Of a stretch of 64,000 nt of DNA, positions 25,395 to 56,019 are shown piece after piece. The translations under genes were made by a program, and so were the position numbers. The stretch's first letter is position 1; every line of letters starts with the position of its first letter. The stretch covers positions 368,173 through 432,172 of the forward strand of contig CAWHWS010000002.1 in assembly GCA_963833115.1 (NCBI GenBank). The letters are read 5' to 3'. The stretch is from an uncultured Alphaproteobacteria bacterium (GTDB lineage: Bacteria > Pseudomonadota > Alphaproteobacteria > Rhodobacterales > Rhodobacteraceae). The notes under the pieces were generated by a model. That model was not told the origin of the DNA and searched no databases. It saw nothing but the letters and a program-made list of their open reading frames with translations.

Positions 25395-25422
25395 TTGACC
25401 CACGGGGCCGCTGGCTTAGGGT
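25395..25422 (+). promoter_or_regulatory. Sigma70-like promoter
   Basis: TTGACC-N16-TAGGGT ~35 nt upstream of ATG 25458. Confidence 0.5.
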
Positions 25423-25457
25423 CCGCCCGCAGCCCCCGAGATCCCCGGAGCCCCACC

Positions 25458-34826: not shown

Positions 34827-35405
34827 TCAATGGCAGGTGATCGGCAGGGTGGCCCCGCGGACGGCGAAGAGCTTCGATCCGCAGACGAAGGGCGGTGCGC
34901 CATAGCGGTCGGTGAAGACGCGGGAGGAATGCGGCGTGCCGGTGAAGCCGCATCCCGGAGCGATATCGGGAACGCTCCGGTCCGTCGATCCCAGGAGGAG
35001 CCGCGTCCGTTCGGGACGCGAGGAACGGTGATGCGACGAGGGAGCGGCGGCGCAGAGAGCGGCGGCGCCCATTCGGGGCGGAGCGATCGATCTGAGGAGG
35101 GACAGCGCCGGACCGCCCCATGCGGCCGATGCGCGGCAGGATCCGCCTTGCGTGGTCCTCGACCCCCGATCCGCCTGGAACGACGAGGAGATCGGGGTCC
35201 TCTTCGGCCGGCGCGCATCGCGCGGACGATCCTCCGAGCGTTTCGACGAGGGCGCGCCGTCCGCCGAAATGAATCGGCAGCGCGCGAATGCGGTGCCGGA
35301 CAGGCGGCGCGCGATGCCGATCACGTCCGAGACGAGAGCGACCTCCGTCGCCACGAAACCCGGCGCGACGTGGATCTCGACGGCGCGGGCGCGGGCGCGG
35401 ATCAT
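34827..35405 (-). pseudogene. Collapsed GlxA/AraC-family regulator
   Basis: N-terminal EIHVAPGFVATEVALVSDV and C-terminal [33 protein letters not shown] in only 192 codons with a scrambled middle. Confidence 0.7.
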
Positions 35406-37807: not shown

Positions 37808-37875
37808 CCGCCTCTCCTCCTGGGCACGGACGTGTTCCGGGGGACGGCGCGCATCGTCAATCGGACCGTCGCCGT

Positions 37876-37890
37876 TTCAACGTTTTAGAA
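37876..37890. promoter_or_regulatory. Candidate LysR site TTC-N9-GAA in divergent promoter
   Basis: TTCAACGTTTTAGAA, same geometry as the site at 40482-40496. Confidence 0.35.
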
Positions 37891-37992
37891 GCCCTCGTTC
37901 CGATTTCTCGCGTCGGCCCGGAACGCTTGCGGCGCGCCGGCCCGGGAGAACACAACCGTGGGCAGGCGCCACGTCGACGCCAGGGACACGCG

Positions 37993-39513: not shown

Positions 39514-40468
39514 GCCCCTCCAGACGGACCTGGCCGTCGAGCCATGGGAAGCGGGTCACCACCGGCGCCACGCAGGCCTCCGAGACGAGCTGCCTCAGGA
39601 TGCCTATGATCCGCCCCGCGATCTCGGGAGGCGCGTCGGAGCGCCCATAGAGCGCGACGGAGCGGGAGAACGCCGGGATCGGCAGCGGCTGCAGGCGGAC
39701 GGCCTCGCGGAAGCGCCAGGCCCGCTCATAGGCGAGCGGCGTCACGATGGCCCAGCCCTGCGCCGCCCCGACCAGGGCCATGATCGACGCGGCATCGTCG
39801 AACTCGTAGCGCGGTCGCGGAACGATGGCGCTGCGACGGAGATGGGCATCGATCTGCTGGCCGAGCAGATGGCGCCGCGAGTACCGCACCATCGGCAAGC
39901 CCTCGTCGCGCAGGTGCATCATCGGGTCGAGGGCGTCGGCATGGTGCGTGGCCATCACGAAGGGATCGCGCAGGATCGGCTGGACGGTCAGGCCGGGGGG
40001 GACGGAGCCCGACTCGGCGGCGACGGCGAAGTCGATCTCGTGGGCGGCGAGCTGCTCGAGCGCGTCGAGGCTCGTCAAGCTGCGCACCGAGAGCGACGCC
40101 TTGGGCATCGCCCGCGTCAGGGCGAGCGCGATGTCCGGACCGATGCGGCCCTCGAACTCGTCGATCAAGCCCAGCCTCAGGGCCCGCGTCGATGAGATCG
40201 CGCCGATCTCGGTCTCGCTCTTTGCCAGGCGGATCTGGCGCAGCCCCTCCTCGATGCGGATGAGGAAGTTCTGCCCCTGGCCGGTCACCCGGATGGGCCG
40301 TCGCGATCGATCGAGAAGCGTCGTCCCGAGCTCCTGCTCCAGCCGCCCGAGGTGGTGGAAGACCGAGCTGATCGACATGTCGAGCTCGCGGGCGGCATCG
40401 CGCAGCGACAGCGTCCGCGCCACCGTCTCGAAGACCTCCAGCGCCTGCATGGAAAGCCGTGACCTCAT
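39503..40468 (-). CDS. LysR family transcriptional regulator
   Basis: ALEVFETVARTLSLRDAARELDMSISSV HTH, LLDRSRRPIRVT. Confidence 0.92.
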   Translation of the reverse strand: MRSRLSMQALEVFETVARTLSLRDAARELDMSISSVFHHLGRLEQELGTTLLDRSRRPIRVTGQGQNFLIRIEEGLRQIRLAKSETEIGAISSTRALRLGLIDEFEGRIGPDIALALTRAMPKASLSVRSLTSLDALEQLAAHEIDFAVAAESGSVPPGLTVQPILRDPFVMATHHADALDPMMHLRDEGLPMVRYSRRHLLGQQIDAHLRRSAIVPRPRYEFDDAASIMALVGAAQGWAIVTPLAYERAWRFREAVRLQPLPIPAFSRSVALYGRSDAPPEIAGRIIGILRQLVSEACVAPVVTRFPWLDGQVRLEGLSP

Positions 40469-41844: not shown

Positions 41845-42630
41845 CTACCTGACCCCCAGCGCCTCGTCCGCCGGGGCCGCGGCGTCGGCCGACGCCCCTC
41901 CCCAGAGGTCGGCGCGCGCCCTGTCGAGGTCCGCCGCCGTGGTGATCTTGTAGTTCCGCTCGGACCCCTGGACCATCCGGACCGCCATGCCGGCCTCTCG
42001 GGCGACCGCGACGTCGTCCGCGCCGCTGCCGTCATGAGCCGCATGGGCCGCGCGGATCAGCTCGAACGCGAAGCCTTGCGGCGTCTGTGCCCGCCAGAGG
42101 CCGCCGCGCGGGACCGACCCGTCCGCCCAGCCGCCCTTGGCGGACCAGATCGCGTCGATCACCGGCAGCCCCGCGCAGGCGCCGTCGGCCTCCTGGAGCG
42201 CCGAGAGCACGCCTTCGATCACCCAGCGCGGCACGAACGGACGCGCCGCGTCGTGGATCAGGACGAGGTCGGGTCGATGGGCGCGCAGCGCCTCGAGCCC
42301 TCGGCGCACCGACAGGGCGCGGGTCGCGCCGCCCGCGACCGGCTCCAGCGCGCGCGCATCGACGAGCCCGTCGATCGAGCGCGCGCAGAGCACGGCGTCG
42401 TCGGGATGGATCACCGGCAGGACGAACCGCACGGCGTCGACGGCGAGGAACGCCTCGATCGAGCGGCGCAGGGCGCAGACGCCGTCGAGGGGGATGTACT
42501 GCTTCGGGACCTCCCCGCCGAGACGTCGTCCCCGGCCGGCGGCCACGAGCAATGTCGCGACGGAGGGCGGGCGTCCCGGCGCGGGGCTCGGCACGGGGCT
42601 CGGCGCGGGGAGCGCGCGGGGCCTAGTCAA
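41845..42630 (-). CDS. ispD: Stand-alone IspD-family (MEP/polyol-phosphate) cytidylyltransferase
   Basis: AAGRGRRLGGEVPKQY, LIHDAARPF, RAQTPQGF, NYKITT; no IspF domain follows. Confidence 0.82.
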   Translation of the reverse strand: MTRPRALPAPSPVPSPAPGRPPSVATLLVAAGRGRRLGGEVPKQYIPLDGVCALRRSIEAFLAVDAVRFVLPVIHPDDAVLCARSIDGLVDARALEPVAGGATRALSVRRGLEALRAHRPDLVLIHDAARPFVPRWVIEGVLSALQEADGACAGLPVIDAIWSAKGGWADGSVPRGGLWRAQTPQGFAFELIRAAHAAHDGSGADDVAVAREAGMAVRMVQGSERNYKITTAADLDRARADLWGGASADAAAPADEALGVR

Positions 42631-43228
42631 CGGACTGGATGGGCCGGGCGCTGCCGGACCGCTGGCCGGACGGGCGCGCGTGCGGCGGCCGGAAGAGCTG
42701 CGGCGCGAACCAGTCCGGCTCCTCGCCGGCGAAGAGGTCGAGGAAGCCGATCGCCCGGGACGGATCCTCCTCCACGTTCTCGCGAAAGCTCCACCAGGTC
42801 CGCAGGTCCCGGACCGATGGCGCGACGCGCTGCATCCCGTCGAAATCGGCCGAGATCACCAGCCCCCGGACATCGAGGCAGAACGCGACGTAGAGGTGCC
42901 CCTCGGGCCAGAACTGCGCGGGGTCGGCCGCGTCCCCGGGCCCCCGGACGCCGAGCCGGGCCGGCATTCCCACGATCAAGGCGCGCAGCATGAGACCGGC
43001 CGCGAACCCCACATAGGCGCGCTTGTCCCCGATGCTGACGGGCTTCTGCGCCTGAAAATCGGCGAGCCAGGCGGTGAACACGCCGGCGAGCGCCTCGCGG
43101 TCCACGGCGAAGCGATGCCCGGTCTCGGCCTCGATGCGCGCGACCTCGTCCTCGAACGCCCGGACGAACCATCGCAGGCGCTGCGCGGACTTCCGGAACG
43201 GCGTCTCTGGGGCGATCGGCGTCGTCAT
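42623..43228 (-). CDS. Hypothetical protein (201 aa)
   Basis: Good ORF coupled to neighbours; WPEGHLYVAFCL and TWWSFRENVEEDP look conserved; family not recognised. Confidence 0.7.
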   Translation of the reverse strand: MTTPIAPETPFRKSAQRLRWFVRAFEDEVARIEAETGHRFAVDREALAGVFTAWLADFQAQKPVSIGDKRAYVGFAAGLMLRALIVGMPARLGVRGPGDAADPAQFWPEGHLYVAFCLDVRGLVISADFDGMQRVAPSVRDLRTWWSFRENVEEDPSRAIGFLDLFAGEEPDWFAPQLFRPPHARPSGQRSGSARPIQSVD

Positions 43229-43237: not shown

Positions 43238-43912
43238 CTATAGATGGTCGGCCAGGGCCTGCAAATAGCGGGCCAGCCCCGCGGCGTCCTCCATCCGGTC
43301 CGGCACGCCGTCCCGCGTGGCCGCCACGAGCGCCGACGAAAGGCCGAGGATCGTCTCCTCCTCGGCCATCCCCGGCGCCCTCGCCGCGAGGAGCCAGAGG
43401 GCGATGGCGATCAGCGCCTGGTCGATCCGGGCCTGTTCGACCCCCCGGTCGGCATCGGCCAGTCCGGGCCTACGGGCGATGATCGCAGACGTGCGGATGT
43501 CGGCGATGAGGCGGGCGGCGCGCTCGGCCGGAGCCCGGCCCGTGAGCGGCCGCGTCGACAATCGTCCCGCGAGCAGCGTCTCGCTCATGAAATCCCCGTG
43601 TCGTCCGCCGGGCAGGTGCTCCCACGCGTAGACGACCACCGTCGCCAGCGTCTCCGGCGCGGCGGCGCGATCCGCCAGCGTGTCGGCGGCCGCACGCACG
43701 GCGCCCGGGTCGATCGGCGCCGCCTTGAGACGCCGTCCGACGGAGTGGACGGCCCGGAGACCCGCTCGGAACCCATCACGGATGGGCTCGGGCAGGAGGG
43801 CGACCGCCGGCTCGATGGTCTCCTCGGTCGCATCGGCCAGCGAGGAGACGCCCCGGAGGGCATCACGGAGCGGCATCTGCAGCGTCGAGAAGAGGTGGGG
43901 CGCCGATCGCAT
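43238..43912 (-). CDS. Hypothetical helical protein (224 aa)
   Basis: ORF in operon between pfkB and the 201-aa gene; family not recognised. Confidence 0.65.
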   Translation of the reverse strand: MRSAPHLFSTLQMPLRDALRGVSSLADATEETIEPAVALLPEPIRDGFRAGLRAVHSVGRRLKAAPIDPGAVRAAADTLADRAAAPETLATVVVYAWEHLPGGRHGDFMSETLLAGRLSTRPLTGRAPAERAARLIADIRTSAIIARRPGLADADRGVEQARIDQALIAIALWLLAARAPGMAEEETILGLSSALVAATRDGVPDRMEDAAGLARYLQALADHL

Positions 43913-43941
43913 GTCGCACTCCGAGGCGGATGACCGAGAGA

Positions 43942-44886
43942 CTATCCCCGATGCGGGGTCGTTGCCATGAAATCCAGCGTCGCCTCGAGCGAGACGACCC
44001 CCGCCTGCGAGCCCAGCCCGGTGGCGTTCTGGGCCGAGGCCGCCTGCCCCAGTCGCAGGCAGTCCGCCATCCGGCGGCCCAGATGCAGGCCGGTGGCGAA
44101 GCCGGCGTTGAAGCAGTCGCCGCAGCCGCAGGTGCACAGCACGTCCACGTCGAAGGCGGGCGAGTCGATCCGCGCGCCCGAGCGGTCGCGCAGCATCGCC
44201 CCCTGCGCCCCGAGCGTCAGGATCACGGCGCCGGCCCCGAGGTCCAGCAGGAAGGCCGCGATGTCGTCGAGATCCGTCAGCCCCGACAGCGCCATCGCCT
44301 CCTCCTCGGAGGGCATGAAGTAATCGGTGTTCGGCAGCAGCGACCGGACCAGGTCCAGGTCGGCGGCGGTAGAGGCGAAGACGTCGAGCGTGGTCGTGAC
44401 GCCCCGGGATCGCGCCTCGGCCAGCACCTCGGCGGTGCGACCCGCGTCCATCCGGTCCATCAGCCCCACGCCGCCGACATGCAGGATGCGCGTGTCCAGC
44501 ACGCTCTCCAACGCGGCGTCGTCCACCCAGAAGCCCGCCGTCGCGCCGCGCTTGTGCAGCGCCGGGCGCGCGCCGTCCGGGCGCGTGGTCACGATGCTCG
44601 AGGAGGTCGAGAAGCCCGGGCAGCGCTGCATGTGCCGCGTGTCCACGCCGAAATCGCCCAGCCGGCGCAGCACCCAGTCGCCCATCAGGTCCTCGCCCAC
44701 CCCGCCGACCGCCTGCACGCTGAGGCCGTGCCTGGCTGCGACGATGGCGGCCGATCCGGCCGCGCCGGACACCGCGAGCGCGAAATCCTCCACGAAATGG
44801 GTGCCGCCGCCGGCCGGTATCTCGGTCACCGGGCGGCACAGCGCGTCGAACGTGTAGAACCCCATCGAGGTGTAGTCGAAGGTCAT
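43942..44886 (-). CDS. PfkB/ribokinase-family carbohydrate kinase
   Basis: GAAGSAAIVAAR, FMPSEEEA, ILTLGAQG, TCGCGDCFNAGF anion-hole motif. Confidence 0.92.
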   Translation of the reverse strand: MTFDYTSMGFYTFDALCRPVTEIPAGGGTHFVEDFALAVSGAAGSAAIVAARHGLSVQAVGGVGEDLMGDWVLRRLGDFGVDTRHMQRCPGFSTSSSIVTTRPDGARPALHKRGATAGFWVDDAALESVLDTRILHVGGVGLMDRMDAGRTAEVLAEARSRGVTTTLDVFASTAADLDLVRSLLPNTDYFMPSEEEAMALSGLTDLDDIAAFLLDLGAGAVILTLGAQGAMLRDRSGARIDSPAFDVDVLCTCGCGDCFNAGFATGLHLGRRMADCLRLGQAASAQNATGLGSQAGVVSLEATLDFMATTPHRG

Positions 44887-44893
44887 GGCATCC

Positions 44894-45943
44894 TCAGCGT
44901 AGCCGCTCGCCGCTGGCATGGTCGAAGAGGTAGAGCCGGGCGGGATCGAAGCGCACGCTCTGCGTGCCGCCCAGCTCCGCGCGGTAGGCGCGGTCGGCCT
45001 TGATCTCGACCAGCGTCTCTCCGGTCCGCAGCGTGAGGAACGTCATGTCGCCGGTGGGCTCCAGCCCGTAGATCTCGCCCGTCAGGTCGCCCCCGCCCGG
45101 CGATACCGCGCAGTCCTCGGGGCGCACGCCGAGCGTGACCGGCCCCGCGTGCCGGCTCGGCAGTCCCGCGACCTCGACCCCCGGCGCGGAGAAGCGACCG
45201 CCCTCCAGCCGCCCCTCGATCAGGTTCATGGGCGGCGATCCGATGAAGTTCGCGACGAACGTGTTGGCCGGATCGGTGTAGATGTCGTCGGGCGTGCCGA
45301 TCTGCTGTATCCGCCCGGCGCGCATGACGACGATCCGGTCCGCCAGGGTCATCGCCTCGATCTGGTCGTGGGTGACGTAGACGGTGGTGATGCGCAGCTC
45401 GCGCTGGATGTGCTTGATCTGCACCCGCATCGCCTGGCGCAGCTTGGCGTCCAGGTTCGAGAGCGGCTCGTCCATCAGGAAGACCTGCGGCTGGCGCACG
45501 ATGGCGCGGGCCAACGCCGCGCGCTGGCGCTGCCCGCCCGAGAGCGCGCCGGGCTTGCGATCCAGGTAGTCGGCCAGCTCCACCAGCCCGGCGGCGCGGC
45601 GCACCTGCGCGTCCTGCTCGGCGCGCGGCACGCCGCGCATCCTGAGCGGGAAGCGGATGTTCTCGTAGACGGTCATGTTCGGGTAGAGCGCGTAGCCCTG
45701 GAACACCATCGCCACGTCGCGGTCGCGCGGATCGACCTCGTTCATCAGCTCGCCGTCCATGCGGATCTCGCCCGCCGTCGGCTCCTCCAGGCCCGCGATC
45801 ATCCGCATCGTCGTGGTCTTGCCGCAGCCCGAAGGGCCGAGGAAGACGACGAACTCCTCGTCGGCGATGTCCATGTCGACGTCCCGCACGCCGTGGACGT
45901 CGCCCCAGCTCTTCTGGATGCCCGAAAGCTCGATCCGCGCCAT
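44894..45943 (-). CDS. CUT1 carbohydrate ABC transporter ATP-binding protein
   Basis: GPSGCGKTT, LSGGQRQR, FLMDEPLSNLDAKLR. Confidence 0.96.
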   Translation of the reverse strand: MARIELSGIQKSWGDVHGVRDVDMDIADEEFVVFLGPSGCGKTTTMRMIAGLEEPTAGEIRMDGELMNEVDPRDRDVAMVFQGYALYPNMTVYENIRFPLRMRGVPRAEQDAQVRRAAGLVELADYLDRKPGALSGGQRQRAALARAIVRQPQVFLMDEPLSNLDAKLRQAMRVQIKHIQRELRITTVYVTHDQIEAMTLADRIVVMRAGRIQQIGTPDDIYTDPANTFVANFIGSPPMNLIEGRLEGGRFSAPGVEVAGLPSRHAGPVTLGVRPEDCAVSPGGGDLTGEIYGLEPTGDMTFLTLRTGETLVEIKADRAYRAELGGTQSVRFDPARLYLFDHASGERLR

Positions 45944-45945: not shown

Positions 45946-46788
45946 CTACCCCTTCACCGCGCCCATGGTCAGCCCGCGGCTCAGGTGCTTCTGGATCGCG
46001 ACCACCACGAGGAACACCGGCAGGAACGCGAGGAAGGCGACCAGCGCGATGGCGTTGTAGATCACGCCGTCCGAGCCGCCGGTGAAGTTCGCGAGCGCGA
46101 CCGACATCGTGTAGGCGTCCGGCGTCGAGGCGATCAGCAGCGTGAACAGGAACTCGTTGATCGCGAAGATCATCGCGATGACCGCCGCGGTGATGATGCC
46201 GGGCAGGATCGCCGGCACGATGATCTCCCACAGGATGCGCAGGTCCGACGCGCCGTCGGTGCGCGCCGCGTCCTCGAGCTCGTGCGGGATGTCGAGCATG
46301 TAGGACCGGATGATCCACGTCACGAAGGAGAGGTTGATGGCGGCGTAGATCAGCATCAGGGCCCAGATCGTGTCGAGGAGGCCCATGTTGCGGAACAGGA
46401 AGAAGATCGGGATCGCCACGATCGCCGGCGCCATCATCCGCGTCGACAGGATGTAGAACCCGATGTCGTCGCGCCCCCGGTACTCGTAGCGCGCCAGGGA
46501 GTAGGCCGCCGGGATCGCGAGGACGAGGTCGATCACCACCGATCCGAGGACCGCCAGGACCGAGTTGCGCAGGTACTTCGCCATCGGCCAGTCCGACCAG
46601 ATCATGTGCCAGGCGTCGAGCGAGAGCGTGGGCAGGTAGATCGGGCGCGGGGTGATGATCTCGGTCCGCGGGCGCAGGCCGATCGAGAGGAACCACAGCA
46701 CCGGCACCAGGCAGAACAGCGCCCATCCTCCCAGGATCAGGTAGCGCAGCGCGCGCGACTCGCCGCGCCGGCGTCTGGCGGACGCCAT
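45946..46788 (-). CDS. Carbohydrate ABC permease (MalG-like)
   Basis: ELEDAARTDGA EAA motif, six TM segments. Confidence 0.95.
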   Translation of the reverse strand: MASARRRRGESRALRYLILGGWALFCLVPVLWFLSIGLRPRTEIITPRPIYLPTLSLDAWHMIWSDWPMAKYLRNSVLAVLGSVVIDLVLAIPAAYSLARYEYRGRDDIGFYILSTRMMAPAIVAIPIFFLFRNMGLLDTIWALMLIYAAINLSFVTWIIRSYMLDIPHELEDAARTDGASDLRILWEIIVPAILPGIITAAVIAMIFAINEFLFTLLIASTPDAYTMSVALANFTGGSDGVIYNAIALVAFLAFLPVFLVVVAIQKHLSRGLTMGAVKG

Positions 46789-46791
46789 GCC

Positions 46792-47709
46792 CTAGTCCCT
46801 CGACGAGACGAAGGCGCGCTTCACCACGAGCTGCGCGACGAGGATGGTGATGACCAGCATGACGACCGAGGCCGCCGAGGCGTAGCCGAAGTCGAAGAAC
46901 TTGAAGCCCGTCCGGTAGATGAAGTAGCTGATCGTCTCGGTCCCGAAGGCCGGGCCGCCCTTGGTGATGATGAAGACGTTGGCGAACATCGTCGTGATGT
47001 CGATCCCCCGCAGGATCAGGGCGACCGCGATCACCGGCTTCATCAGGGGCAGCGACACGTTCCAGAAGATCGCGAACCAGGACGCGCCGTCGAGCCGGGC
47101 GGCCTCCTCCACCTCCTCGTCCTGGCCCTGCAGGGCGGCGACGAAGATGATGAAGAGGAACGGCGTCCACTGCCAGACGTCCGCCGCGATCAGCAGCGCC
47201 CGGCTGCCCCAGATCGAGGACTGGATCGCGAGGTTCCCATCGATCAGCCCGAGCCGCATGAGCACGTCGGCGAAGACGCGCCCGTCCAGCACCGCCAGCT
47301 TGTAGATGAAGGCGACCGCCGAGGGCATGAACAGCATCGGCACCAGGAACGCGATCCGCCAGCCGCGCACCCACGGATCGCGGTAGGCGTGATAGGCCAG
47401 CGTCAGCGCGATCAGGCACTGCAACGTGAGGGCGATCGAGCCGATCACGAACGTGTTCCAGAGCGCGCCCCAGAACTGCGCGTCGCCCATCAGCTTGGCG
47501 TAGTTGGCGAAGCCGACCGGGTTCCATGGCCCGAACTTCACCGCGTGGAAGCTCTGCACGATGGCGTAGACGCCGGGGTAGAGCGTGATCCCGAAGAGGT
47601 AGATCACCGCCGGCGCGACCAGCAGGTAGGGGAACGCCGCCCGCATCCGCCTTGAGCGCCGCCGCCGGACGGGGCGCGCGGCCGCGCCGGGTGCCGCGAG
47701 GTCGCTCAC
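46792..47709 (-). CDS. Carbohydrate ABC permease (MalF-like)
   Basis: WQWTPF, EEAARLDGA, GGPAFGTET. Confidence 0.95.
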   Translation of the reverse strand: MSDLAAPGAAARPVRRRRSRRMRAAFPYLLVAPAVIYLFGITLYPGVYAIVQSFHAVKFGPWNPVGFANYAKLMGDAQFWGALWNTFVIGSIALTLQCLIALTLAYHAYRDPWVRGWRIAFLVPMLFMPSAVAFIYKLAVLDGRVFADVLMRLGLIDGNLAIQSSIWGSRALLIAADVWQWTPFLFIIFVAALQGQDEEVEEAARLDGASWFAIFWNVSLPLMKPVIAVALILRGIDITTMFANVFIITKGGPAFGTETISYFIYRTGFKFFDFGYASAASVVMLVITILVAQLVVKRAFVSSRD

Positions 47710-47725: not shown

Positions 47726-48466
47726 TCACTCGGCCATCCCCGCGATCTCGCCGGCGACGGCCTCGCCCAGGTCGCGGTTGCCCTGCACCAGGAGGTGGAT
47801 GCCGTCCGGGCCCACGTCCTCCTTGCCCACGACCGTCGCCGCGTCGAAGAAGGCCGCCCCCGCCGCCTTGGCGATGGCCTCGTAGACCTCCGGCAGCGCC
47901 TCGATCTTCTCCTGCGAGCCGGCGAATATCTCCGCCGCGCCGGGGTCGATCTCGTCGCCGAGCGGCGGCGGGCTGATGACGAGCACTCGGGGCGGCTCCT
48001 CCTCGTAGGTGTACCAGCCGAGCCCGCTGCCCCGCTGCACGATGTCGATGAGCTCGCCCATGCCCAGCCCGATCTCCAGCGGGGAGCGGTCGAGATAGGT
48101 CTTGGTGTCGTTGGTCCCGAGCATGATCACCACGACGTCCAGCGGCGCGTGGCTCATCAGGGCGGAGTCGAGGTACTCCGCCCCGTTCATGAGGCCCGGC
48201 GCCGATCCGTCCTCCACGTTGGTCGTGCGCCCGCTCAGGCCCTCGGTCACGACGTGGTAGCCCTCGCCCAGCGCCGCCTGGAGGATCCGGGGCCAGCGGT
48301 CGGCCTCGGCGTGGCGCTCGGTCGGGGTGATCGGGTCCTTGGGCACCCAGCCCCAGGTGATGGAATCGCCGAAGACCATGACGTTGACGGGGTCCTCCGC
48401 CTCCTGGGCGGCGGCGGGGACGGCGAGCGCCGCGGCGAGCGCGGCCGTGAGGATCGTGCGGGTCAT
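47726..48466 (-). CDS. Secreted SGNH/GDSL hydrolase
   Basis: Signal peptide, FGDSITWG, EGLSGRTT, MLGTNDTK, DGIH catalytic motifs. Confidence 0.92.
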   Translation of the reverse strand: MTRTILTAALAAALAVPAAAQEAEDPVNVMVFGDSITWGWVPKDPITPTERHAEADRWPRILQAALGEGYHVVTEGLSGRTTNVEDGSAPGLMNGAEYLDSALMSHAPLDVVVIMLGTNDTKTYLDRSPLEIGLGMGELIDIVQRGSGLGWYTYEEEPPRVLVISPPPLGDEIDPGAAEIFAGSQEKIEALPEVYEAIAKAAGAAFFDAATVVGKEDVGPDGIHLLVQGNRDLGEAVAGEIAGMAE

Positions 48467-48521
48467 CGGAACCTCCGGGGGCGGGGGGACGGACGGCGCG
48501 CCATGCGCCGCCCGTTCGGAT

Positions 48522-50081
48522 TCAGAACGGCAGGTCCTTGCCCTCGCCGACATAGAGCCCCGGCGCGGCCTGGGCGTACTCGACCGGATCGGCGCCCTGG
48601 TAGAACCCGTTCTGCGACATGATCTCCCGCACCGCCGCGGCGGCGTTGTCGAGCGCCTCCTGCCCGGTGATCTGCCCGACCACGGCGCGGTTGATCTCGT
48701 TGCCGATGGCCTGCTCGATCGGGAACGCGCCCGGCAGCCGCGGCGAGCACCAGGCGTGCTCGAGGCTGTCGGACCACACCTTCGCCGGCTGGCTGACCTG
48801 CTGCAGGTTGGGGTTGGTCAGGACCGAGCGGTAGCCCGGCGCCACGCCGTTGGCGTTGGCCTCGTTCATCGCCATGATCGACGCGGTCGTGAGGAACGCC
48901 AGCATCAGGAACGCCCCCTCGGGGTTCTGCGCGCTGGCCGCGACGCAGGAGGTGGAGCCCGCGATGTTGGGCGGCGCGAAGCGGCCCCCCTCGATGCGGG
49001 GCTCGTAGATGGTCGTGAACTGATCGACGATCTGGCTCTGGTCGGGGCGCATCGCCTGCGTGCCCGAGTCCTGCCAGGAGATGTTGGTCGCGACCTGCCC
49101 GCCGAGCCACGCGGCGCGGTTCTCGGGCCAGCCGGCACCGGCGAAGCCCTCGTTGGCATTGGGCGCCAGCGCCAGGATGATCTCCATCCCCTTCATGCCC
49201 TCGGGCCCGTTGAAGATCGGCTCCCAGCCCTCGTCGAAGAGCATCATGCCGGCCTGCGCGGCGATGTGCTCCCACGTGTAGGTCGACCAGAACCCGGGCG
49301 CGGCCATCATGCCCACGCCCGACACGCCCGGCCGCACGCGGTTCAGCTCGCCGGAGACCCGGATCAGCTCGTCATAGGTCGGGATCGTGGAGACCCGGTC
49401 GACCTCCCCGCCCAGGACCTCGCGCATGAGGTCGGTGCGGACGTGGACCATCTGCACGTCGCAGTCGAACGGAATGCCGTACATCTTGCCGTTGAAGAAG
49501 CCGTAGTTGAGCCGGTACGTATCGTAGAAGTCGTCGAGCGGCAGGTTCCACTTCTCGGCGTAGTCGTCGAGCTCGGCGAGGAAGCCGGGCGCCGCGAAAT
49601 CCCCCATCCAGGGCGAGAAGAACTGCAGCGCGTCGAAGCTCGCGTTGCCCGAGATGAACTCCGTCAGCGCCTTGTCGTAGAAGCTGTCGTCGGGGATCGG
49701 CACCAGCTCGACGGTGATGCCGGAGAGCTCCTCGAACGGGGTCAGGCCCTCCGCGGCGGATTCCGCGTCGGCCGCGCCGATGGCGAAGCGCACGGTGGTG
49801 CCGCCCAGCTCGGAGCGGACCTTCTCCCAGTCGACGGTGCGGATCCAGTCCCTCGCCGGATCCCACATCCTGTCCTCGTCGGTCAGCCCGTAGAGCTCGC
49901 GGTAGTCGGCGCGCACGTACTGCTCGATCGAGATGCGGTCGAGGACGCTCTGCGGATCGGGAAGCTGCGACTGCGCGAACGCGGGCATCGCCAGCCCGCC
50001 GCCGGCGCCGGCCGCGATCAGGCCGCCGGCCGAGCTTCGCTGCAGGAACGACCGTCTGGATAGGTGTCCGCCGATCTTCAT
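48522..50081 (-). CDS. Tat-exported carbohydrate ABC substrate-binding protein
   Basis: SRRSFL twin-arginine signal; GIPFDCD; heads the CUT1 operon. Confidence 0.88.
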   Translation of the reverse strand: MKIGGHLSRRSFLQRSSAGGLIAAGAGGGLAMPAFAQSQLPDPQSVLDRISIEQYVRADYRELYGLTDEDRMWDPARDWIRTVDWEKVRSELGGTTVRFAIGAADAESAAEGLTPFEELSGITVELVPIPDDSFYDKALTEFISGNASFDALQFFSPWMGDFAAPGFLAELDDYAEKWNLPLDDFYDTYRLNYGFFNGKMYGIPFDCDVQMVHVRTDLMREVLGGEVDRVSTIPTYDELIRVSGELNRVRPGVSGVGMMAAPGFWSTYTWEHIAAQAGMMLFDEGWEPIFNGPEGMKGMEIILALAPNANEGFAGAGWPENRAAWLGGQVATNISWQDSGTQAMRPDQSQIVDQFTTIYEPRIEGGRFAPPNIAGSTSCVAASAQNPEGAFLMLAFLTTASIMAMNEANANGVAPGYRSVLTNPNLQQVSQPAKVWSDSLEHAWCSPRLPGAFPIEQAIGNEINRAVVGQITGQEALDNAAAAVREIMSQNGFYQGADPVEYAQAAPGLYVGEGKDLPF

Positions 50082-50146: not shown

Positions 50147-50274
50147 GTGAACATATGGACTGCTCCCGTCACGTTTGTACGCCGCCGGCATCCTGTCAAG
50201 CGATGGATACGCCGCGCTGCGGCGAGACCGTCGCGGGGCGCCGGCGATCATGACCGCTGGACGGTGAACAATTG
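50147..50274. promoter_or_regulatory. Divergent promoter with two GTGAACAWWTG direct repeats and a minus-strand TTGACA
   Basis: GTGAACATATG at 50147-50157, GTGAACAATTG at 50264-50274, TGTCAA at 50194-50199. Confidence 0.5.
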
Positions 50275-50332
50275 CGTTGGTACGACTGCAAGGGTTCAGG
50301 ACCACCGGGACGCCGCCCAACGGAGGAGCGCC

Positions 50333-51664
50333 ATGTCATCCAACGTCGCCCTGACCGGGCTCGCCCGCGACCTCGCGGCCCGTGCGGATGCCGGACGGCC
50401 GGTGCGGATCGGCCTCGTCGGCTCGGGCGAGATGGGGACCGACATCGTCACCCGCGCCGGGCTGATGGACGGGGTCGAGGTCGCCGCCATCGCCGACATC
50501 GACCCCGCCGCCGCGCATCGCGCGGTGGAGATCGCGCGGCGCGCGGGGGGGTGCAGCCGCGACGCGCCGGACGCGGGCGCCGTGAACGCCGCGATCGAGG
50601 CCGGGCTGACCGCCGTGACGACCGCCGACGCGATGCTGGACTCCGGCCTGATCGACGTGGTGATCGACGCGACCGGCGTGCCCGCGGTCGGCGCCGAGAT
50701 CGGGCTCGCGGCGATGGAGCGGGGCAAGCACCTGGTGATGATGAACGTCGAGGCCGACGTGACCATCGGCGTCTATCTCGCGGCCGAGGCCGAGCGCCTG
50801 GGCGTGGTCTACTCCCTCGGCGCGGGCGACGAGCCGTCCTCCTGCATGGAGCTGATCGAGTTCGCCTCCGCGATGGGCCATCGCATCGTGTGTGCGGGCA
50901 AGGGCAAGAACAATCCCCTGAACTTCGACGCCCTGCCGGACGACTACGCCGACGAGGCCGCCGCCCGGCACATGAACCCCCGGATGCTGGTGGAGTTCGT
51001 GGACGGATCGAAGACGATGGTGGAGATGGTCGCCATCGCCAACGCGACCGGGCTGGTCCCCGACGTGGACGGCATGCACGGCCCCGCCGCCGGGCCGAAG
51101 GACCTGTCCCGCGTGCTGGTCCCAGAGCGGGACGGCGGCATCCTGTCGGGCGCCGGCCGGGTGGACTACTCGGTGGGCCAGGGCCTCGCGCCCGGCGTCT
51201 TCGTCGTGATCGAGGCGGAGCATCCTCGCATCCGCGAGCGCCTGCGCGACCTCAAGATGGGCGACGGGCCCTACTTCACGTTCATCCGCCCCTACCACCT
51301 GACCTCCCTGGAGGTTCCCCTGACCTGCGCGCGCGCGGTGCTCCACGGCCGCGCGGACATGGTGCCGATGGCGCGGCCGGTGGCCGAGGTCGCGGCCGTC
51401 GCCAAGCGCGACCTCGCCCCCGGCGACACGCTCGACCTGCTCGGCGAGTACACCTACCGCGCCTGGGCGATGGAGGCCGGCCGCGCGCGCGGCCTCGGCG
51501 CGCGGCCGGCGGGGCTCCTGCCCGGCTGCACCGTGACGGCGGCGATCGCGAAGGGCGAGCTCCTGACGGACCGCAACACCGCCCTGCCCCCGGGCTCGCG
51601 CATCGCCGCCCTGCGCGCCCGCCAGGACGCCATGGTGCACGGCCGGGAGCCCGCCCATGCCTGA
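50333..51664 (+). CDS. Type II DXP reductoisomerase (DRL/DXR-II; NAD-binding homoserine-dehydrogenase-like domain plus C-terminal SAF domain)
   Basis: [84 protein letters not shown]: long stretches match Brucella abortus DRL as I recall it, including the GDE, KGK and KTMVE metal/substrate residues. Confidence 0.85.
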
Positions 51665-52667
51665 CGGCCCCGACGCCAACCTGCCCTACGCGGTCCGCGC
51701 CTACGCGCCCGAGCGGCTGGTGGAGGCCCTGCGCCGGATGCGCCTCATCCGCGCCTTCGAGGAGGGCGCCGAGGAGAGCTACACGCGCGGCCTGATCCAC
51801 GGGACCATGCACCTGAGCATCGGCCAGGAGGCGTCGGCGGTCGGCTCGTGCATGGCGCTGACGGACGAGGACAAGATCACCTCGACCCATCGGGGCCACG
51901 GGCACTGCATCGCCAAGGGCGCCGACCTCGGCCGGATGTTCGCGGAGTTCTTCGGCAAGGAGACGGGCTATTGCAGGGGCCGGGGCGGCTCGATGCACAT
52001 CGCCGACGTGGCCAAGGGCAATCTCGGCGCCAACGGCATCGTCGGCGGCGGCCTGCCCATCGCGGTCGGGGCCGCGCTCTCGGCCAGGCGGCTCGGGACG
52101 GGGGCGGTCACGGTCTGCTTCTTCGGCGACGGGGCGGGCAACGAGGGCGCGTTCCACGAGGCGCTGAACATGGCGTCGATCTGGCGGCTGCCGGTCGTCT
52201 TCGTCTGCGAGAACAACCTCTACGGCATGTCCACGTCGACCGAGCGTTCGACCGCGGTGCGCCATGTCGCCGACCGGGCCGCCGCGTACTCGATGCCGGG
52301 CGTCACCGTCGACGGCAACGACTTCTCGGCCGTGACCGAGGCCGTCGACGCCGCCGTCGCCCGCGCGCGGGCCGGCGACGGGCCGAGCCTGGTCGAGAAC
52401 CTGACCTATCGCTGGCGCGGGCACTCCAAGTCCGACCGCAACCGCTACCGAACCAAGGAGGAGATCGCCGAATGGCAGGGGCGCGACCCCATCGCGCGGA
52501 TGACGGACATGCTGCGCGCCCACGGGATCGTCGATGACGACGCCGTGGCCGGGATCGAGGCCGAGGTGGCCGAGACGGTCGCCGCCGCCATCGCCTTCGC
52601 GAAGGACAGCCCCGCGCCCGACACCGCCGAGGCCGCGCGCGACGTCGACACCGGGGCGGCCGCGTGA
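51657..52667 (+). CDS. acoA: TPP-dependent dehydrogenase E1 alpha (AcoA-like)
   Basis: [36 protein letters not shown] motif, YRWRGHS. Confidence 0.88.
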
Positions 52668-53674
52668 ACGCGCCCGCCGGGGCGATGCTCCGCGAGCTGA
52701 GCTATGCCGAGGCGATCCGCGAGGCGATGGACATCGCGCTCGGCGAGGACCCGCGCGTGATCCTGATGGGCGAGGACATCGGCGTCTACGGCGGCGCCTT
52801 CGGCGTGACCGGCGACCTGGTGGCCAAGTACGGCGAGGAGCGGGTGATGGACACGCCCATCTCCGAGCTGGGCGGCGCCGGGGTGGCGGTGGGCGCGGCG
52901 CTCACGGGGCTGCGCCCGATCTTCGAGTTCCAGTTCTCCGACTTCGCGGCGCTGGCGATGGAGCAGATCGTCAACCAGGCCGCCAAGCTGCGCTACATGC
53001 TGGGCGGCGCGGTGTCCGTGCCCCTGGTGATGCGCTTTCCGGCCGGGTCCGGGACCGGCGCGGCCGCGCAGCATTCCCAGAGCCTCGAGGCGTGGTTCGG
53101 CCACGTGCCGGGCCTGAAGGTGGTGCAGCCCTCCACCCCCGAGGACGCCAAGGGCCTCCTGCTGGCCGCGCTGGACGATCCCGACCCGGTGATGATCTTC
53201 GAGCACAAGATCCTCTACAAGATGCGCGGCCCCGTGCCCGAGGGGCGCTACGTGACGCCCATCGGCCGCGCGGCGGTGCGGCGCGAGGGGCGGGATCTGA
53301 CGATCGTGGCCACCGCGATCATGGTGCACAAGGCGCTGGAGGCCGCCGGCACGCTGGCCGAGGACGGCATCGAGGCCGAGGTGATCGACCTGCGCACCGT
53401 GCGCCCGATGGACCGGGAGACGGTGCTGGCCTCGGTCCGTCGCACGGGCCGTCTGCTCGTGGTCTACGAGGGGGTCAAGACGCTGGGCGTGGGCGCCGAG
53501 GTCAGCGCGATGGTCGCCGAGAGCGACGCGTTCGACTTCCTCGACGCGCCCATCGTGCGGCTCGGCGGGGCCGAGAGCCCGATCCCCTACAATCCCGAGC
53601 TCGAGCGCGCGGTCGTCCCGCAGGTGCCGGACATCCTCGAGGCCGCGCGGGCCTTGGCACGGGGCCGCGTCTGA
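52664..53674 (+). CDS. acoB: TPP-dependent dehydrogenase E1 beta (AcoB-like)
   Basis: [37 protein letters not shown]. Confidence 0.88.
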
Positions 53675-55026
53675 TGCCGACCGAGGTCATCATGCCCAAG
53701 GTCGACATGGACATGGCGACCGGCCGCATCGTGGCCTGGCATTGCGAGGACGGGGCGCCGGTGGAGAAGGGCATGCCCCTCTTCGACATCGAGACCGACA
53801 AGGCCGCGATGGAGATCGAGGCGCCCGCGAGCGGGCTGCTCCGCCACCGCGTCCCAGAAGGGACCGAGCGGCCCATCGGCGCGCCGGTCGCCTGGCTCTA
53901 CGCGCCGGACGAGCCGGTCGGAGACGCGCCGCCGGATGGCGAGGGGGCCGCGGCCGGCCCCGGACCGTCGCGGAGCGGCGCCCGGCCCGGCGGCGCGCCG
54001 GCCGACGATGCCCTGGCGGATGCGGGGACGGCCGCGCCCCCGGTCGCGGACGGGCCGACCTCGTCCCATCCGCCGGACCGCCCGCGCGCCACGCCCAGAG
54101 CCAGGCGCCGCGCCCGGGAGGCGGGGATCGACCTCGCGGGGCTGCCTGGCACGGGCCCGAGGGGGCGCGTCCAGGCGCGCGACGTCCCCGGCGCCCGGCA
54201 CGAGGATCCCGAGGCGACCGAAGGCCGGAGGTCCCGGGCGCGCGCGCCCGCGGCCCCCGCCGGGACGCCGGCCGCGGACGGTCCCCTGCGCGTCCTCCGC
54301 AGCGGCGCCGGCACCGGCACGCCCGTCGTCCTGCTGCACGGGTTCGCCTCCGACGCCGCCATCTGGACGCCCCTGGAGGAGCACCTCGACCGCCCCCCCC
54401 TGATCCGGATCGAGCTGCCGGGCCATGGCGGCTCGCCGCGCCGCGCCCCGGCGACCTTCGCGGCCCTGGCCAAGGCGCTGCGCGAGGCCTTCGACGACCT
54501 GCACCTCGAGGCCGCGCACCTGGTCGGGCACAGCCTGGGCGGCGCCCTCGCCCTCGCGATCGCCGACACCCGTCCCAGGTGCGTCCGCAGCGTCAGCCTG
54601 ATCGCGCCCGCCGGGCTGGGCCCGCAGGTCAACGGCGAGGCGCTGTCGGGCATCTGCCGCGCCGCCCGGGCCGAGAGCCTCGCGCCCTGGCTGCGCGTGC
54701 TGGTCGCCGACGAGCGGATCGTGACCGACGGCTACGCCCGGGCCGCCATGGCCGCACGGCGCGATCCGGACCTGCGCGCGGCGCAGGCCGCCATGGCGGA
54801 CGCGCTCTTCCCCGACGGCGTCCAGGCCTTCGACCTCCGCGCCGCCCTGCGCCGGCTGGAGGTGCCGTCCCGCATCGTCTGGGGGAAACGCGACCGGATC
54901 CTGCCATGGCGGCAGGCCCTGTGCGCGGGCGGCGGCACCGCGCTGCACCTCTTCGAGGGGATCGGGCACATGCCGCAGATCGAGGCGCCGGAGGCGATCG
55001 GCCGCCTCCTCGCGGCCGGATTCTGA
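53674..55026 (+). CDS. acoC: AcoC-type E2: lipoyl domain, subunit-binding domain and alpha/beta-hydrolase acetyltransferase
   Basis: [10 protein letters not shown] lipoyl Lys, [36 protein letters not shown]. Confidence 0.85.
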
Positions 55027-55038: not shown

Positions 55039-56019
55039 GTGGACCAGGACATCGCCCTGGGGGCCCGGGGCATCTCCGGCCGCCACCGGTCGCTGCGCGT
55101 GCGGGCCGCGTGGCTCTACCATGTCGAGGGGATGACCCAGACCGAGGTGGCGGCGACCCTGGGCGTGAGCCGCGTCATGATCACGCGCCTGCTGGCCGAA
55201 GCCCGCGCGCGGGGCGAGGTCGTCATCCGCGTGCGCTCGGAGATCGCCCCGATCGTGGAGCTGGAACGCGACCTCGAGGGGCGCTTCGCCCTGCGCCGCG
55301 CGGTCGTCGCGCCCTTCGAGGCCATGGGGGGCGATCCGGTCCGGTCGATCGCCGCGGCCGCCGGCGCGCACGTCTCGGGGCTGATGGCCAACAACCTCAC
55401 GATCGGCGTCGGCTGGGGGCGCACGCTGCAGGCGATGCTGCCGCACCTCGAGGGCCGGGCGCTGAACGGCGTGCGCGTCGTGTCCCTGCTGGGCGGGATC
55501 GCGCAGGCGCGCCGCTTCAATCCGGCCGAGTTCGCCTGGCAGTTCGCGGAGCTGTTCGACGCCGAGGGCTACCTCATCCCCGCGCCCGCGATCGTCGACT
55601 CGCCCAGGACGCGCCATGCTCTGCTGGAGCACTGCGGGCTCGACCAGATATTCGAGATGGCGGCGACCTGCGACGTCGCTCTGCTGTCCTGCGGCGGGAT
55701 CGACGCGCTGACGACCTCCTACAGGGTCGGCTACGTCTCGGAGGCCGAGCGGCAGTCGATGATCCGGGCGGGCGTCGTCGGCGACGTGCTCTACAACTTC
55801 CTCGATGCCGAAGGGCGGCTCGTCGATCATCCGGTGAACGAGCGCGTGATCGGCATGTCGCCCGCCCGCCTCGGCCGCGTCGAGAACAAGATCCTCGTCT
55901 CCGGCGGACGGGAGAAGCTCGACATCCTGCGCGGCGCCCTGAAGTCGGTGCGGCCGCAGACCCTGATCACCGATGAGGTCACCGGCCGATCGCTGATGGA
56001 CGGACCGGACGGCGACTGA
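55039..56019 (+). CDS. SorC/DeoR-family sugar-phosphate-binding transcriptional regulator
   Basis: AAWLYHVEGMTQTEVAATLGVSRVMITRLL HTH; GVGWGRT; AGVVGDVL. Confidence 0.92.
   Translation: MDQDIALGARGISGRHRSLRVRAAWLYHVEGMTQTEVAATLGVSRVMITRLLAEARARGEVVIRVRSEIAPIVELERDLEGRFALRRAVVAPFEAMGGDPVRSIAAAAGAHVSGLMANNLTIGVGWGRTLQAMLPHLEGRALNGVRVVSLLGGIAQARRFNPAEFAWQFAELFDAEGYLIPAPAIVDSPRTRHALLEHCGLDQIFEMAATCDVALLSCGGIDALTTSYRVGYVSEAERQSMIRAGVVGDVLYNFLDAEGRLVDHPVNERVIGMSPARLGRVENKILVSGGREKLDILRGALKSVRPQTLITDEVTGRSLMDGPDGD

Follow-up and report, generated by a model that had tools for sequence, protein, structure and literature searches.

The stretch of DNA analysed here (64,000 nucleotides, hereafter the 64-kb window) has a GC content of 74.5%, and its sequence occurs in three sediment-metagenome DNA runs only. 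On its plus strand an open reading frame at 50333-51664 encodes a protein of 443 amino acids; the ATG is located 6 nt past a GGAGGA Shine-Dalgarno sequence, and the GC3 of the gene is 0.93. It is the first gene of an operon that continues with the subunits of a TPP-dependent dehydrogenase and ends with a regulator gene, and a second operon with genes for uptake and phosphorylation is oriented divergently. The features of the locus are as follows:

41845..42630, minus strand: IspD (MEP cytidylyltransferase), last gene of the divergent operon (Pfam IspD, 9e-54)
42623..43228, minus strand: conserved gene 2, 201 aa, a cluster-specific family without Pfam match
43238..43915, minus strand: conserved gene 1, about 225 aa, helical, without Pfam or NCBIfam match
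43942..44919, minus strand: PfkB-family sugar/polyol kinase (Pfam PfkB, 2e-37), true start probably near 44886
44894..45943, minus strand: ABC ATPase, UgpC/MalK type (Pfam ABC_tran and OB_MalK; NCBIfam UgpC-like, 426.7 bits)
45946..47709, minus strand: two ABC permeases, 46792-47709 and 45946-46788 (Pfam BPD_transp_1)
47726..48553, minus strand: GDSL/SGNH hydrolase (Pfam Lipase_GDSL_2, 2e-20)
48522..50081, minus strand: ABC solute-binding protein, first gene of the divergent operon (Pfam SBP_bac_1, 4e-29)
50265..50298, no strand: candidate operator, TGAAC-N24-GTTCA inverted repeat lying 35 nt before the DXR-II start codon
50333..51664, plus strand: DXR-II / DRL (type II 1-deoxy-D-xylulose-5-phosphate reductoisomerase family), 443 aa, heading its operon
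51657..52667, plus strand: TPP-dependent dehydrogenase E1alpha, acetoin-dehydrogenase type (Pfam E1_dh, 1e-90)
52664..53674, plus strand: E1beta (Pfam Transket_pyr and Transketolase_C; NCBIfam NF006667)
53674..55026, plus strand: AcoC-type E2 (Pfam Biotin_lipoyl, E3_binding and Abhydrolase; NCBIfam NF011457)
55039..56019, plus strand: SorC/DeoR-family sugar-phosphate-sensing regulator, last gene of the operon (Pfam Sugar-bind, 1e-50, and HTH)

A scan for promoter and terminator consensus sequences between 49900 and 56500 gave zero sites, such a scan being uninformative at 74.5% GC.

Identity of the first gene

Judged from its sequence, the first gene almost certainly encodes a member of the DXR-II family. 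The protein matches the Pfam model DRL_cat (PF21135; 3e-67, 226 bits) over 164 of 164 model positions, and its N-terminal part shows a weak match to NAD_binding_3 (PF03447, 28.7 bits). With HMMER it aligns over the full length with the DRL of Brucella abortus (3UPL/3UPY, E about 1e-176), residues 1-439 pairing with residues 1-440 at 63% identity over 439 residues; the two proteins share family and fold. The four motifs that the initial annotation had quoted for the Brucella protein are all present, letter-for-letter as in 3UPL/3UPY. They agree at every published position of the active site, the fosmidomycin anchor, the dimer interface and functional divergence, and 28 of 28 published diagnostic and active-site positions are identical, among them H250, the substrate and fosmidomycin anchors K191, K193 and T229 and the dimer residues E174, F178, R320 and Y322 (PMC3847144). 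DLO-like outgroups, which show only 33-38% identity, deviate at K193, T229 and H250. In a neighbour-joining tree with 100 bootstraps and few outgroup sequences, the window protein and the functionally verified B. abortus DRL fall into one alphaproteobacterial clade in 100 of 100 replicates, apart from the DLO1/DLO2-type proteins. On sequence criteria, the DRL_cat domain, the 28 positions and this clade set the protein apart from DLO-type oxidoreductases and, together with the full-length match to 3UPL/3UPY, bear out the earlier reading of the gene as a bona fide DXR-II. A homoserine dehydrogenase, as homologs are called in many databases, was likewise rejected, since the Homoserine_dh catalytic domain is absent, the catalytic part is DRL_cat and the protein reaches none of the NCBIfam models.

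The class I DXR (IspC) domains DXP_reductoisom and DXP_redisom_C gave no match in the open reading frame (Pfam, NCBIfam), and with the same databases no class I dxr was found among the major open reading frames of the 64-kb window. By analogy with relatives tested by complementation, the protein very probably interconverts DXP and MEP with NADP(H) as cofactor. The suggestion that it could confer fosmidomycin tolerance fails, because K191, K193 and T229 are all conserved; these residues hold fosmidomycin, a competitive inhibitor of DXR-II, in the structure 3UPY (PMC3847144).

The two operons and their conservation

DXR-II and E1alpha share 8 nt at their stop and start (ATGCCTGA), E1alpha and E1beta overlap in GTGA, and E1beta and AcoC overlap in TGATG. 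The E1alpha stays below the cut-off of the PDH E1alpha equivalog (376 versus 394) and shows 52% identity to the E1alpha of the canonical Enterococcus aco operon versus about 40% to PdhA of S. meliloti. The E1alphas linked to DXR-II are a tight group with at least 68% mutual identity and about 50% identity to aco E1. AcoC passes the acetoin dehydrogenase E2 equivalog NF011457 (347.7 bits, cut-off 307), and the score of the dxs model remains far under its cut-off. The top NCBIfam matches of the regulator are DeoR and LsrR, each under the cut-off (for LsrR 120 bits versus 486). No E3 gene is part of the operon in the window, and neither a sigma-54 AcoR nor an E3 (AcoL) nor a 2,3-butanediol dehydrogenase was found in the cluster.

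In the divergent operon, the solute-binding protein finds only distant sugar/sorbitol-binding proteins in the PDB, and its position is kept in related loci, where the permeases have counterparts with 74-91% identity. The PfkB kinase gives only generic ribokinase-family matches among solved structures and reaches zero NCBIfam equivalogs. The GDSL/SGNH hydrolase is unique to the version of the cluster in the window; all 80 related loci lack a counterpart. Conserved gene 1 is weakly conserved across related loci, and its single-sequence model (pLDDT 47) was too poor for a structure search. Conserved gene 2 has 495 homologs, every one named hypothetical, and occurs in a PTS-type cluster as well as in 41 of 49 related loci; its AF2 model (pLDDT 84, pTM 0.80) found zero matches with E < 1 in the PDB (Foldseek). 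IspD, which abuts or overlaps the stop of conserved gene 2, scores 186 bits with TIGR00453 (cut-off 181.3) and is equally placed only in the related loci L001 and L032, giving three lineages with IspD in the operon. The initial annotation had described an operon with a TPP dehydrogenase rather than isoprenoid genes: E1alpha, E1beta and AcoC do follow DXR-II with overlapping stop and start codons, but isoprenoid genes are not entirely missing from the vicinity, with IspD being located in the divergent operon.

The inverted repeat TGAAC-N24-GTTCA has a single match in the 64-kb window, with 0.17 expected, and at least 25 related loci, PTS-type clusters included, carry it directly ahead of DXR-II. 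We infer that it is a candidate site for the SorC-family regulator.

E1alpha adjacency is counted over 78 related alphaproteobacterial loci and the presence of the other genes over 49 well-covered ones. E1alpha directly follows DXR-II in 67 of the 78 loci, across orders, and this adjacency persists in Priestia and Pseudoroseomonas at 42-57% identity. The regulator is present in 43, the PfkB kinase in 38 and the ABC transporter in 30 of the 49 loci. The module for uptake and phosphorylation varies by lineage, being ABC transporter and PfkB kinase, a GAT- or Gut-type PTS without kinase or, in Priestia, MFS transporter and FGGY kinase. These modules are interchangeable, and therefore the substrate of DXR-II should be a phosphorylated imported polyol or sugar.

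Two functional DXR-II paralogs each have been found by complementation in O. anthropi and M. loti (PMC3847144, citing Sangari 2010). The O. anthropi-type paralog 2 (439 aa), which shares 68.5% identity with the window protein, is located in an operon DXR-II-E1alpha-E1beta-AcoC with gene lengths that agree with Table S4 of PMC3847144, and the Mesorhizobium copies are likewise operon-linked; the operon context of these paralogs is not discussed in that paper. Paralog 2 and the M. loti paralogs (68-70% identity) share the E1/E2 operon, SorC and the upstream inverted repeat with the window, whereas O. anthropi has PTS uptake without kinase instead of ABC transporter and PfkB, and in Mesorhizobium a classical E2 replaces the AcoC-type E2. 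The cluster is located on a conjugative accessory plasmid, with lpdA and lipA, in S. meliloti Rm41 and on pNGR234b in S. fredii NGR234. R. litoralis and NGR234 carry a class I DXR besides, and Mesorhizobium with operon-linked copies has none (Table S3, PMC3847144), so that in such hosts the operon-linked gene may also serve biosynthesis.

The Brucella-type gene is monocistronic, is flanked by a HAD hydrolase gene and by pntAB and provides the sole DXR, whereas the window gene heads the E1/E2 operon and adjoins importer and kinase genes. The accessory plasmids, the co-occurrence with class I DXR and the monocistronic Brucella-type housekeeping copy argue against a housekeeping function of the operon-linked DXR-II. 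In the neighbour-joining tree standalone copies emerge repeatedly inside the operon-linked clade, and the Brucella branch is placed outside this clade in 42 and nested in it in 56 of 100 bootstraps. A single housekeeping clade of all standalone copies was rejected (0 of 100 bootstraps, with neighbourhoods unrelated to one another), as was a difference between standalone and operon-linked copies at the diagnostic positions, which are invariant across both sets. Taken as a whole, it is quite probable that DXR-II belongs to a catabolic module together with the E1/E2 complex, and the catabolic or salvage role proposed earlier is backed by an operon context that is conserved far outside the window.

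A proposed route of methylerythritol catabolism

The arrangement suggests that an inducible catabolic operon begins with DXR-II and that the enzyme runs backwards for methylerythritol breakdown, not for the making of isoprenoids. Gene content and chemistry point to a specific route, to which we assign a probability of about 0.5. Free 2-C-methyl-D-erythritol (ME) would be taken up via the ABC transporter and phosphorylated to MEP by the PfkB kinase, and DXR-II would then oxidise MEP with NADP+ to DXP in the reverse direction. DXP, like acetoin a methyl-ketone acyloin (CH3-CO-CHOH-R), would be split at C2-C3 by the acetoin-dehydrogenase-type E1alpha/beta, freeing D-glyceraldehyde-3-phosphate (GAP), and the acetyl unit would reach CoA on the lipoyl arm of AcoC, with a housekeeping E3. 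The equilibrium of DXR reportedly lies on the MEP side, with a Keq of about 45; therefore, the reverse direction needs a pull from the E1 step. The regulator would repress both divergent operons at TGAAC-N24-GTTCA until the phosphorylated intermediate builds up, and the co-transcribed IspD could send part of the MEP to isoprenoid synthesis as a salvage branch. The connection to ME and MEP is made because three lineages have IspD within the operon and Gut-type PTS are common among DXR-II neighbours. The sorbitol PTS of Salmonella is a known importer of ME (Testa et al. 2004, as far as relayed in PMC3994034). It might also be possible that E1 prefers another acyloin or a 2-oxo acid. Conserved genes 1 and 2 (43238-43915 and 42623-43228) have no role in the model. 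No description of methylerythritol catabolism or of a cluster of DXR-II with acetoin dehydrogenase was found in the literature searchable as full text; Sangari 2010, Perez-Gil 2012 and Testa 2004 may mention the operon.

The proposed scheme resembles several known systems. Lsr (LsrACDB, LsrK, LsrG, LsrF, LsrR) processes autoinducer-2 by ABC import and subsequent phosphorylation, splits a phosphate of the 1-deoxy-pentulose type into acetyl-CoA plus triose phosphate and is controlled by a SorC-family repressor that senses a phosphorylated intermediate. This is the same working scheme, but the enzymes are unrelated, with an FGGY kinase, an isomerase and the thiolase-like LsrF in place of PfkB, DXR-II and the TPP E1/E2. 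DXS is also a TPP enzyme acting at the C2-C3 bond of DXP, and the proposed E1 step would be its carboligation reversed; however, DXS is a single, non-lipoyl chain that decarboxylates pyruvate, whereas the complex in the window has an alpha/beta E1 and a lipoyl E2 and would transfer the acetyl unit to CoA. AcoA/AcoB/AcoC share with the window a TPP E1alpha/beta and an E2 with lipoyl and alpha/beta-hydrolase domains, and the expected chemistry is alike, a methyl-ketone acyloin being split oxidatively into acetyl-CoA and an aldehyde. This aldehyde is acetaldehyde from acetoin in the aco system and would be GAP from DXP here.

Ordinary catabolism of acetoin or 2,3-butanediol, with the DXR-II-like protein as diol dehydrogenase, would explain why AcoC passes the acetoin-dehydrogenase equivalog and why the E1alpha is nearest to aco-type E1. 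It is nevertheless scarcely credible: canonical aco operons have the sigma-54 AcoR, an E3 and a 2,3-butanediol dehydrogenase, all missing from this cluster, the E1alphas of the DXR-II operons are a group apart with about 50% identity to aco E1, and the sugar ABC importer or PTS, the sugar kinase and the sugar-phosphate-type SorC regulator would be unneeded for acetoin. That a plain housekeeping DXR-II making MEP for isoprenoids is a chance neighbour of an acetoin-dehydrogenase operon also appears quite improbable. The protein is a genuine DXR-II with IspD nearby, and several alphaproteobacteria without class I DXR rely on DXR-II (PMC3847144), but the stop/start overlap with E1alpha, an adjacency kept in 67 of 78 loci and in Priestia and Pseudoroseomonas, and the operator-like repeat recurring across loci argue against chance. 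The location on accessory plasmids, the genomes already equipped with class I DXR and the repeated derivation of standalone copies within the operon-linked clade likewise speak against it.

The two remaining explanations keep a catabolic function and change the substrate. Transporter and kinase could use 1-deoxy-D-xylulose (DX) and yield DXP directly, which E1/E2 would burn to acetyl-CoA and GAP, while DXR-II in forward direction and IspD would salvage part of the DXP; the two enzymes would then share a substrate instead of acting in series. The chemistry of the E1 step is unchanged, DXR-II works in its usual direction, IspD suits a salvage branch, and the generic matches of kinase and solute-binding protein leave room for DX. 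Still, we consider the use of DX unlikely. Free DX is less common in nature than ME, the uptake systems found in place of the ABC transporter belong to the polyol-type PTS (glucitol and galactitol families), and ME uptake by the glucitol PTS is documented, as cited in PMC3994034. DXR-II opens the E1 operon and is translationally coupled to it in 67 of 78 loci, which exceeds the need of a side branch. Alternatively, DXR-II might be a dehydrogenase/isomerase of a polyol phosphate or branched-sugar phosphate derived from a different imported compound, with another acyloin or a 2-oxo product feeding E1 and the DXP/MEP conversion as a side activity. This would fit the presence of DXR-II in organisms without MEP pathway (PMC3847144), the distant DXR-II of Listeria (about 40% identity) beside a Gut PTS without any E1, and the arrangement ADH-GlpD-like-DXR-II in the related locus L072, and the two conserved genes may then be missing enzymes. 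Against this rather unlikely explanation, the residues that anchor the substrate do not differ between housekeeping and operon-linked copies, operon-linked paralogs complement dxr (PMC3847144), IspD ties the operon to MEP, and kinase, DXR-II and E1/E2 already complete a route from ME to central metabolites.

Meaning for the DXR-II family

The patchy occurrence of DXR-II assumed in the initial annotation agrees with PMC3847144, in which the scattered and often redundant distribution is left without explanation. With slightly less confidence than in the route itself, we tentatively propose that DXR-II is primarily catabolic, as the MEP-oxidising first step of an undescribed ME utilisation pathway (ME to MEP to DXP to acetyl-CoA and GAP) that would be widespread in plant- and alga-associated Alphaproteobacteria and some Bacillota, and that the Brucella-type alternative DXR is a copy recruited from the operon, possibly several times. 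Methylerythritol is a stress metabolite of plants, algae and bacteria. If DXR-II is primarily catabolic, this would explain its patchiness, its frequent redundancy with class I DXR, its frequent carriage on plasmids and its presence in organisms without the MEP pathway.

To our knowledge, DXR-II has hitherto been treated solely as a non-homologous substitute of class I DXR in isoprenoid biosynthesis. A catabolic setting that is both conserved and regulated gives its distribution a concrete explanation, and one that is easy to test. Bacterial consumption of methylerythritol, a DXP-cleaving TPP/lipoyl complex and a SorC-type regulon are predictions new to the searchable literature. The finding also concerns annotation, with hundreds of such genes being labelled 'homoserine dehydrogenase', 'SAF domain protein' or 'acetoin dehydrogenase'. 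Operon-linked copies may be non-essential, which therefore bears on DXR-II as a drug target.

Family assignment of the DXR-II protein

The open reading frame at 50333-51664 (+) is a genuine gene: its ATG start is preceded by GGAGGA, and it encodes 443 amino acids with coding-type codon-position GC. The GC content of the window is 74.5%, which is why very long stop-free frames lie antisense or out of frame over real genes; a 447-aa frame antisense to the DXR-II gene (50336-51679, -) was rejected as a high-GC artefact, and a stop-free 877-aa overlapping frame across the ATPase region is likewise an artefact and not a gene.

The protein aligns end to end with the Brucella abortus DRL chains 3UPL/3UPY (E 9e-177), and the four motifs quoted in the initial annotation were all found, identical to those chains. 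Pfam recognised the DRL catalytic domain (3e-67) and, weakly, a homoserine-dehydrogenase-type NAD-binding domain; none of the NCBIfam models was reached. The earlier label 'homoserine dehydrogenase/SAF' goes back to homologs, which the databases name 'homoserine dehydrogenase', 'SAF domain-containing protein' or 'NAD(P)H-dependent oxidoreductase'. At NCBI, the Brucella/Ochrobactrum housekeeping type (loci L084-L086; proteins P0121, P0124, P0125, P0129 and others) is called '1-deoxy-D-ribulose 5-phosphate reductoisomerase' (ribulose, not xylulose); the name given to the operon-linked paralogs of these genomes is no more than 'NAD(P)H-dependent oxidoreductase'.

The DRL family comprises the DXR-II clade, with 11 complementation-verified members, alongside DLO1 and DLO2, which are not DXR clades; positions distinguishing the clades include those that anchor fosmidomycin and the substrate (K191, K193 and T229) and those of the dimer (E174, F178, R320 and Y322) (Carretero-Paulet et al. 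2013, PMC3847144). When 94 sequences were aligned with MAFFT, with B. abortus DRL as reference and positions taken from PMC3847144, the window protein equalled B. abortus DRL at 28 of the 28 listed positions, and K193, T229, H250 and others were changed in two DLO-like outgroups. The window protein is 63% identical to B. abortus DRL; its identity to the second Ochrobactrum and Mesorhizobium paralogs is 68-70%, and to the nearest genome relative 81%. It was united with B. abortus DRL in an alphaproteobacterial clade in 100/100 NJ bootstraps. Thus, membership in the DXR-II family is established as firmly as sequence data allow; the protein adds a new member to this known family. The suggested fosmidomycin tolerance is unsupported, since fosmidomycin inhibits DXR-II competitively and the window protein retains the residues that anchor the drug. 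No class I dxr was found within the 64-kb window.

Gene organisation around the DXR-II gene

The operon with a TPP dehydrogenase described initially is real, with overlapping stop and start codons along DXR-II-E1alpha-E1beta-E2 (ATGCCTGA, GTGA and TGATG, respectively).

Features of the DXR-II locus
Downstream of DXR-II, +: E1alpha, TPP-dependent
Downstream of E1alpha, +: E1beta, TPP-dependent dehydrogenase subunit
Downstream of E1beta, +: E2 with lipoyl, E3-binding and alpha/beta-hydrolase domains
12 nt past E2, +: SorC/DeoR-family regulator (family match)
Divergent operon, -: solute-binding protein (SBP), GDSL hydrolase, two permeases, UgpC-type ATPase, PfkB kinase, two unknowns, IspD
47726-48553, -: GDSL/SGNH hydrolase gene, inserted between SBP and permease genes
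42623-43228, -: unknown gene 2, 201 aa, cluster-specific family
41845-42630, -: monofunctional IspD, last in the transporter/kinase operon, slightly above the TIGR00453 cut-off

The GDSL/SGNH hydrolase has no counterpart in 80 related loci. The 495 homologs of unknown gene 2 are all named 'hypothetical', and its protein has no Pfam match; its AF2 model is confident (pLDDT 84, pTM 0.80) and all-alpha, and Foldseek returned no PDB match at E < 1. In Mesorhizobium and Pseudoroseomonas a homolog immediately precedes the DXR-II gene, and the family is represented twice in S. meliloti Rm41. IspF is absent beside the window IspD gene; beyond the window, IspD occurs in the same operon only in the Oceaniradius (L001) and Geminicoccales (L032) loci.

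The exact repeat TGAAC-N24-GTTCA occurs once in the window (0.17 expected), at 50265-50298, 35 nt upstream of the DXR-II start codon. Its recurrence at the corresponding position of at least 25 related loci, PTS-type clusters included, points to a candidate operator common to these loci. A second half-site, TGAACATA, is located at 50148-50155, closer to the SBP gene, and several related loci have two full repeats, one by each divergent promoter.

Elsewhere in the window, the SorX sRNA (RF02784), a singlet-oxygen-stress sRNA described in Rhodobacter, matches at 10802-10877 (-) with 64.3 bits (Rfam gathering score 46.6), a hint that the organism belongs to the Rhodobacterales or is closely related to them. 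Demethylation of methylamine or betaine is the suggested role of a gene group at 35402-40468, which comprises a DMG-oxidase/GcvT fusion-type protein, a methyltransferase of the MttB family and a LysR regulator. Three frames have a strong coding GC3 signal and no Pfam match: 20549-21670 (+, 373 aa), 25359-27071 (+, 570 aa) and 22372-23016 (-, 214 aa).

Conservation of the cluster

Scanning one genome per species yielded 80 alphaproteobacterial loci with DXR-II 67-82% identical. Of the 78 loci whose sequence extends far enough, 67 have E1alpha directly downstream of DXR-II; 57 loci reach 4 kb or more in that direction, and 42 of these have an AcoC-type E2, 14 a classical one. The 49 well-covered loci contain the SorC regulator (43), unknown gene 2 (41), PfkB kinase (38), ABC importer (30) and glucitol-type PTS (7). 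The O. anthropi and B. intermedia clusters lack a kinase and carry PTS of the galactitol and glucitol types, that of Pseudoroseomonas has two PTS systems, and a Priestia plasmid (DXR-II 41% identical) carries an MFS transporter and FGGY kinase adjoining E1beta-E2-LpdA; the uptake and phosphorylation part is interchangeable between lineages. Listeria has SorC-DXR-II-GutM-Gut PTS without E1. In Aestuariivirga (L072 7229-11320), a zinc alcohol dehydrogenase (ADH), a GlpD-like FAD oxidase and DXR-II form one operon without E1, with a TGAAC-N24-GTTCA site upstream of ADH; the same ADH and GlpD-like gene pair lies beside the S. meliloti Rm41 cluster (L082 19675-22379). These genes may represent a variant pathway branch.

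Proposed pathway and its alternatives

What is conserved at a minimum is a means of uptake and of phosphorylation, DXR-II, a TPP E1/E2 that depends on lipoyl groups, and a repressor of the sugar-phosphate type. DXR-II interconverts 2-C-methyl-D-erythritol phosphate (MEP) and DXP (1-deoxy-D-xylulose 5-phosphate), which is a methyl-ketone acyloin like acetoin. The aco-type E1 would cleave DXP into an acetyl unit, yielding acetyl-CoA, and D-glyceraldehyde-3-phosphate, so that 2-C-methyl-D-erythritol (ME), if it is the imported compound, would reach central metabolism in three enzymatic steps, further enzymes being unneeded. The DXR equilibrium reportedly favours MEP (Koppisch et al. 2002), and flux would therefore depend on the irreversible E1 step.

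The pointers to ME/MEP come from gene content, namely the IspD in the operon and the polyol-type PTS neighbours, which are common among DXR-II clusters; Salmonella is known to take up ME through its sorbitol PTS (Testa et al. 2004, as cited in PMC3994034). The window IspD may be a cluster-specific extra copy salvaging MEP. The cluster might instead, though less probably, serve the utilisation of 1-deoxy-D-xylulose, or of a substrate other than these two. Ordinary acetoin catabolism is a further, unlikely rival: the window E2 exceeds the NCBIfam equivalog cut-off for acetoin-dehydrogenase E2 AcoC (347.7 vs 307), and the E1alpha is 52% identical to that of a canonical Enterococcus aco operon and only ~40% to housekeeping PdhA of S. 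meliloti. The canonical operon, however, comes with a sigma-54 regulator, lpdA and butanediol dehydrogenase. We found no description of the conserved operon and the implied pathway in the searchable literature, and an earlier mention is possible.

Less probably, the window DXR-II could have a plain housekeeping role. The Brucella-type gene, whose product is 96% identical to the protein of the crystal structures, is monocistronic and flanked by a HAD hydrolase gene and pntAB, and Ochrobactrum genomes with this gene also carry an operon-linked 439-aa paralog. Both O. anthropi paralogs are described as functional in PMC3847144, whose Table S4 lists gene lengths of 1317 and 1320 nt, in agreement with the two gene types. 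In S. meliloti Rm41 the cluster is carried, along with lpdA and lipA, on a conjugative accessory plasmid, and it also occurs on pNGR234b; class I DXR is also present in S. fredii NGR234 and R. litoralis Och 149 (PMC3847144 Table S3), and the R. litoralis cluster has exactly the architecture of the window.

Standalone DXR-II copies were monophyletic in 0/100 NJ bootstraps, and their gene neighbourhoods bear no relation to one another. Five of the seven standalone lineages adjoin operon-linked relatives in the NJ tree (95-100% support), which gives the Brucella branch no firm placement; in Aminobacter, standalone and operon-linked copies are ~99% identical. The plasmid location, the co-occurrence with class I DXR and the scattered standalone copies of this NJ tree would fit a scenario in which biosynthesis recruited a catabolic gene more than once. 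The most far-reaching reading, a DXR-II whose primary role is catabolic, we hold to be slightly short of an even chance (about 0.45).
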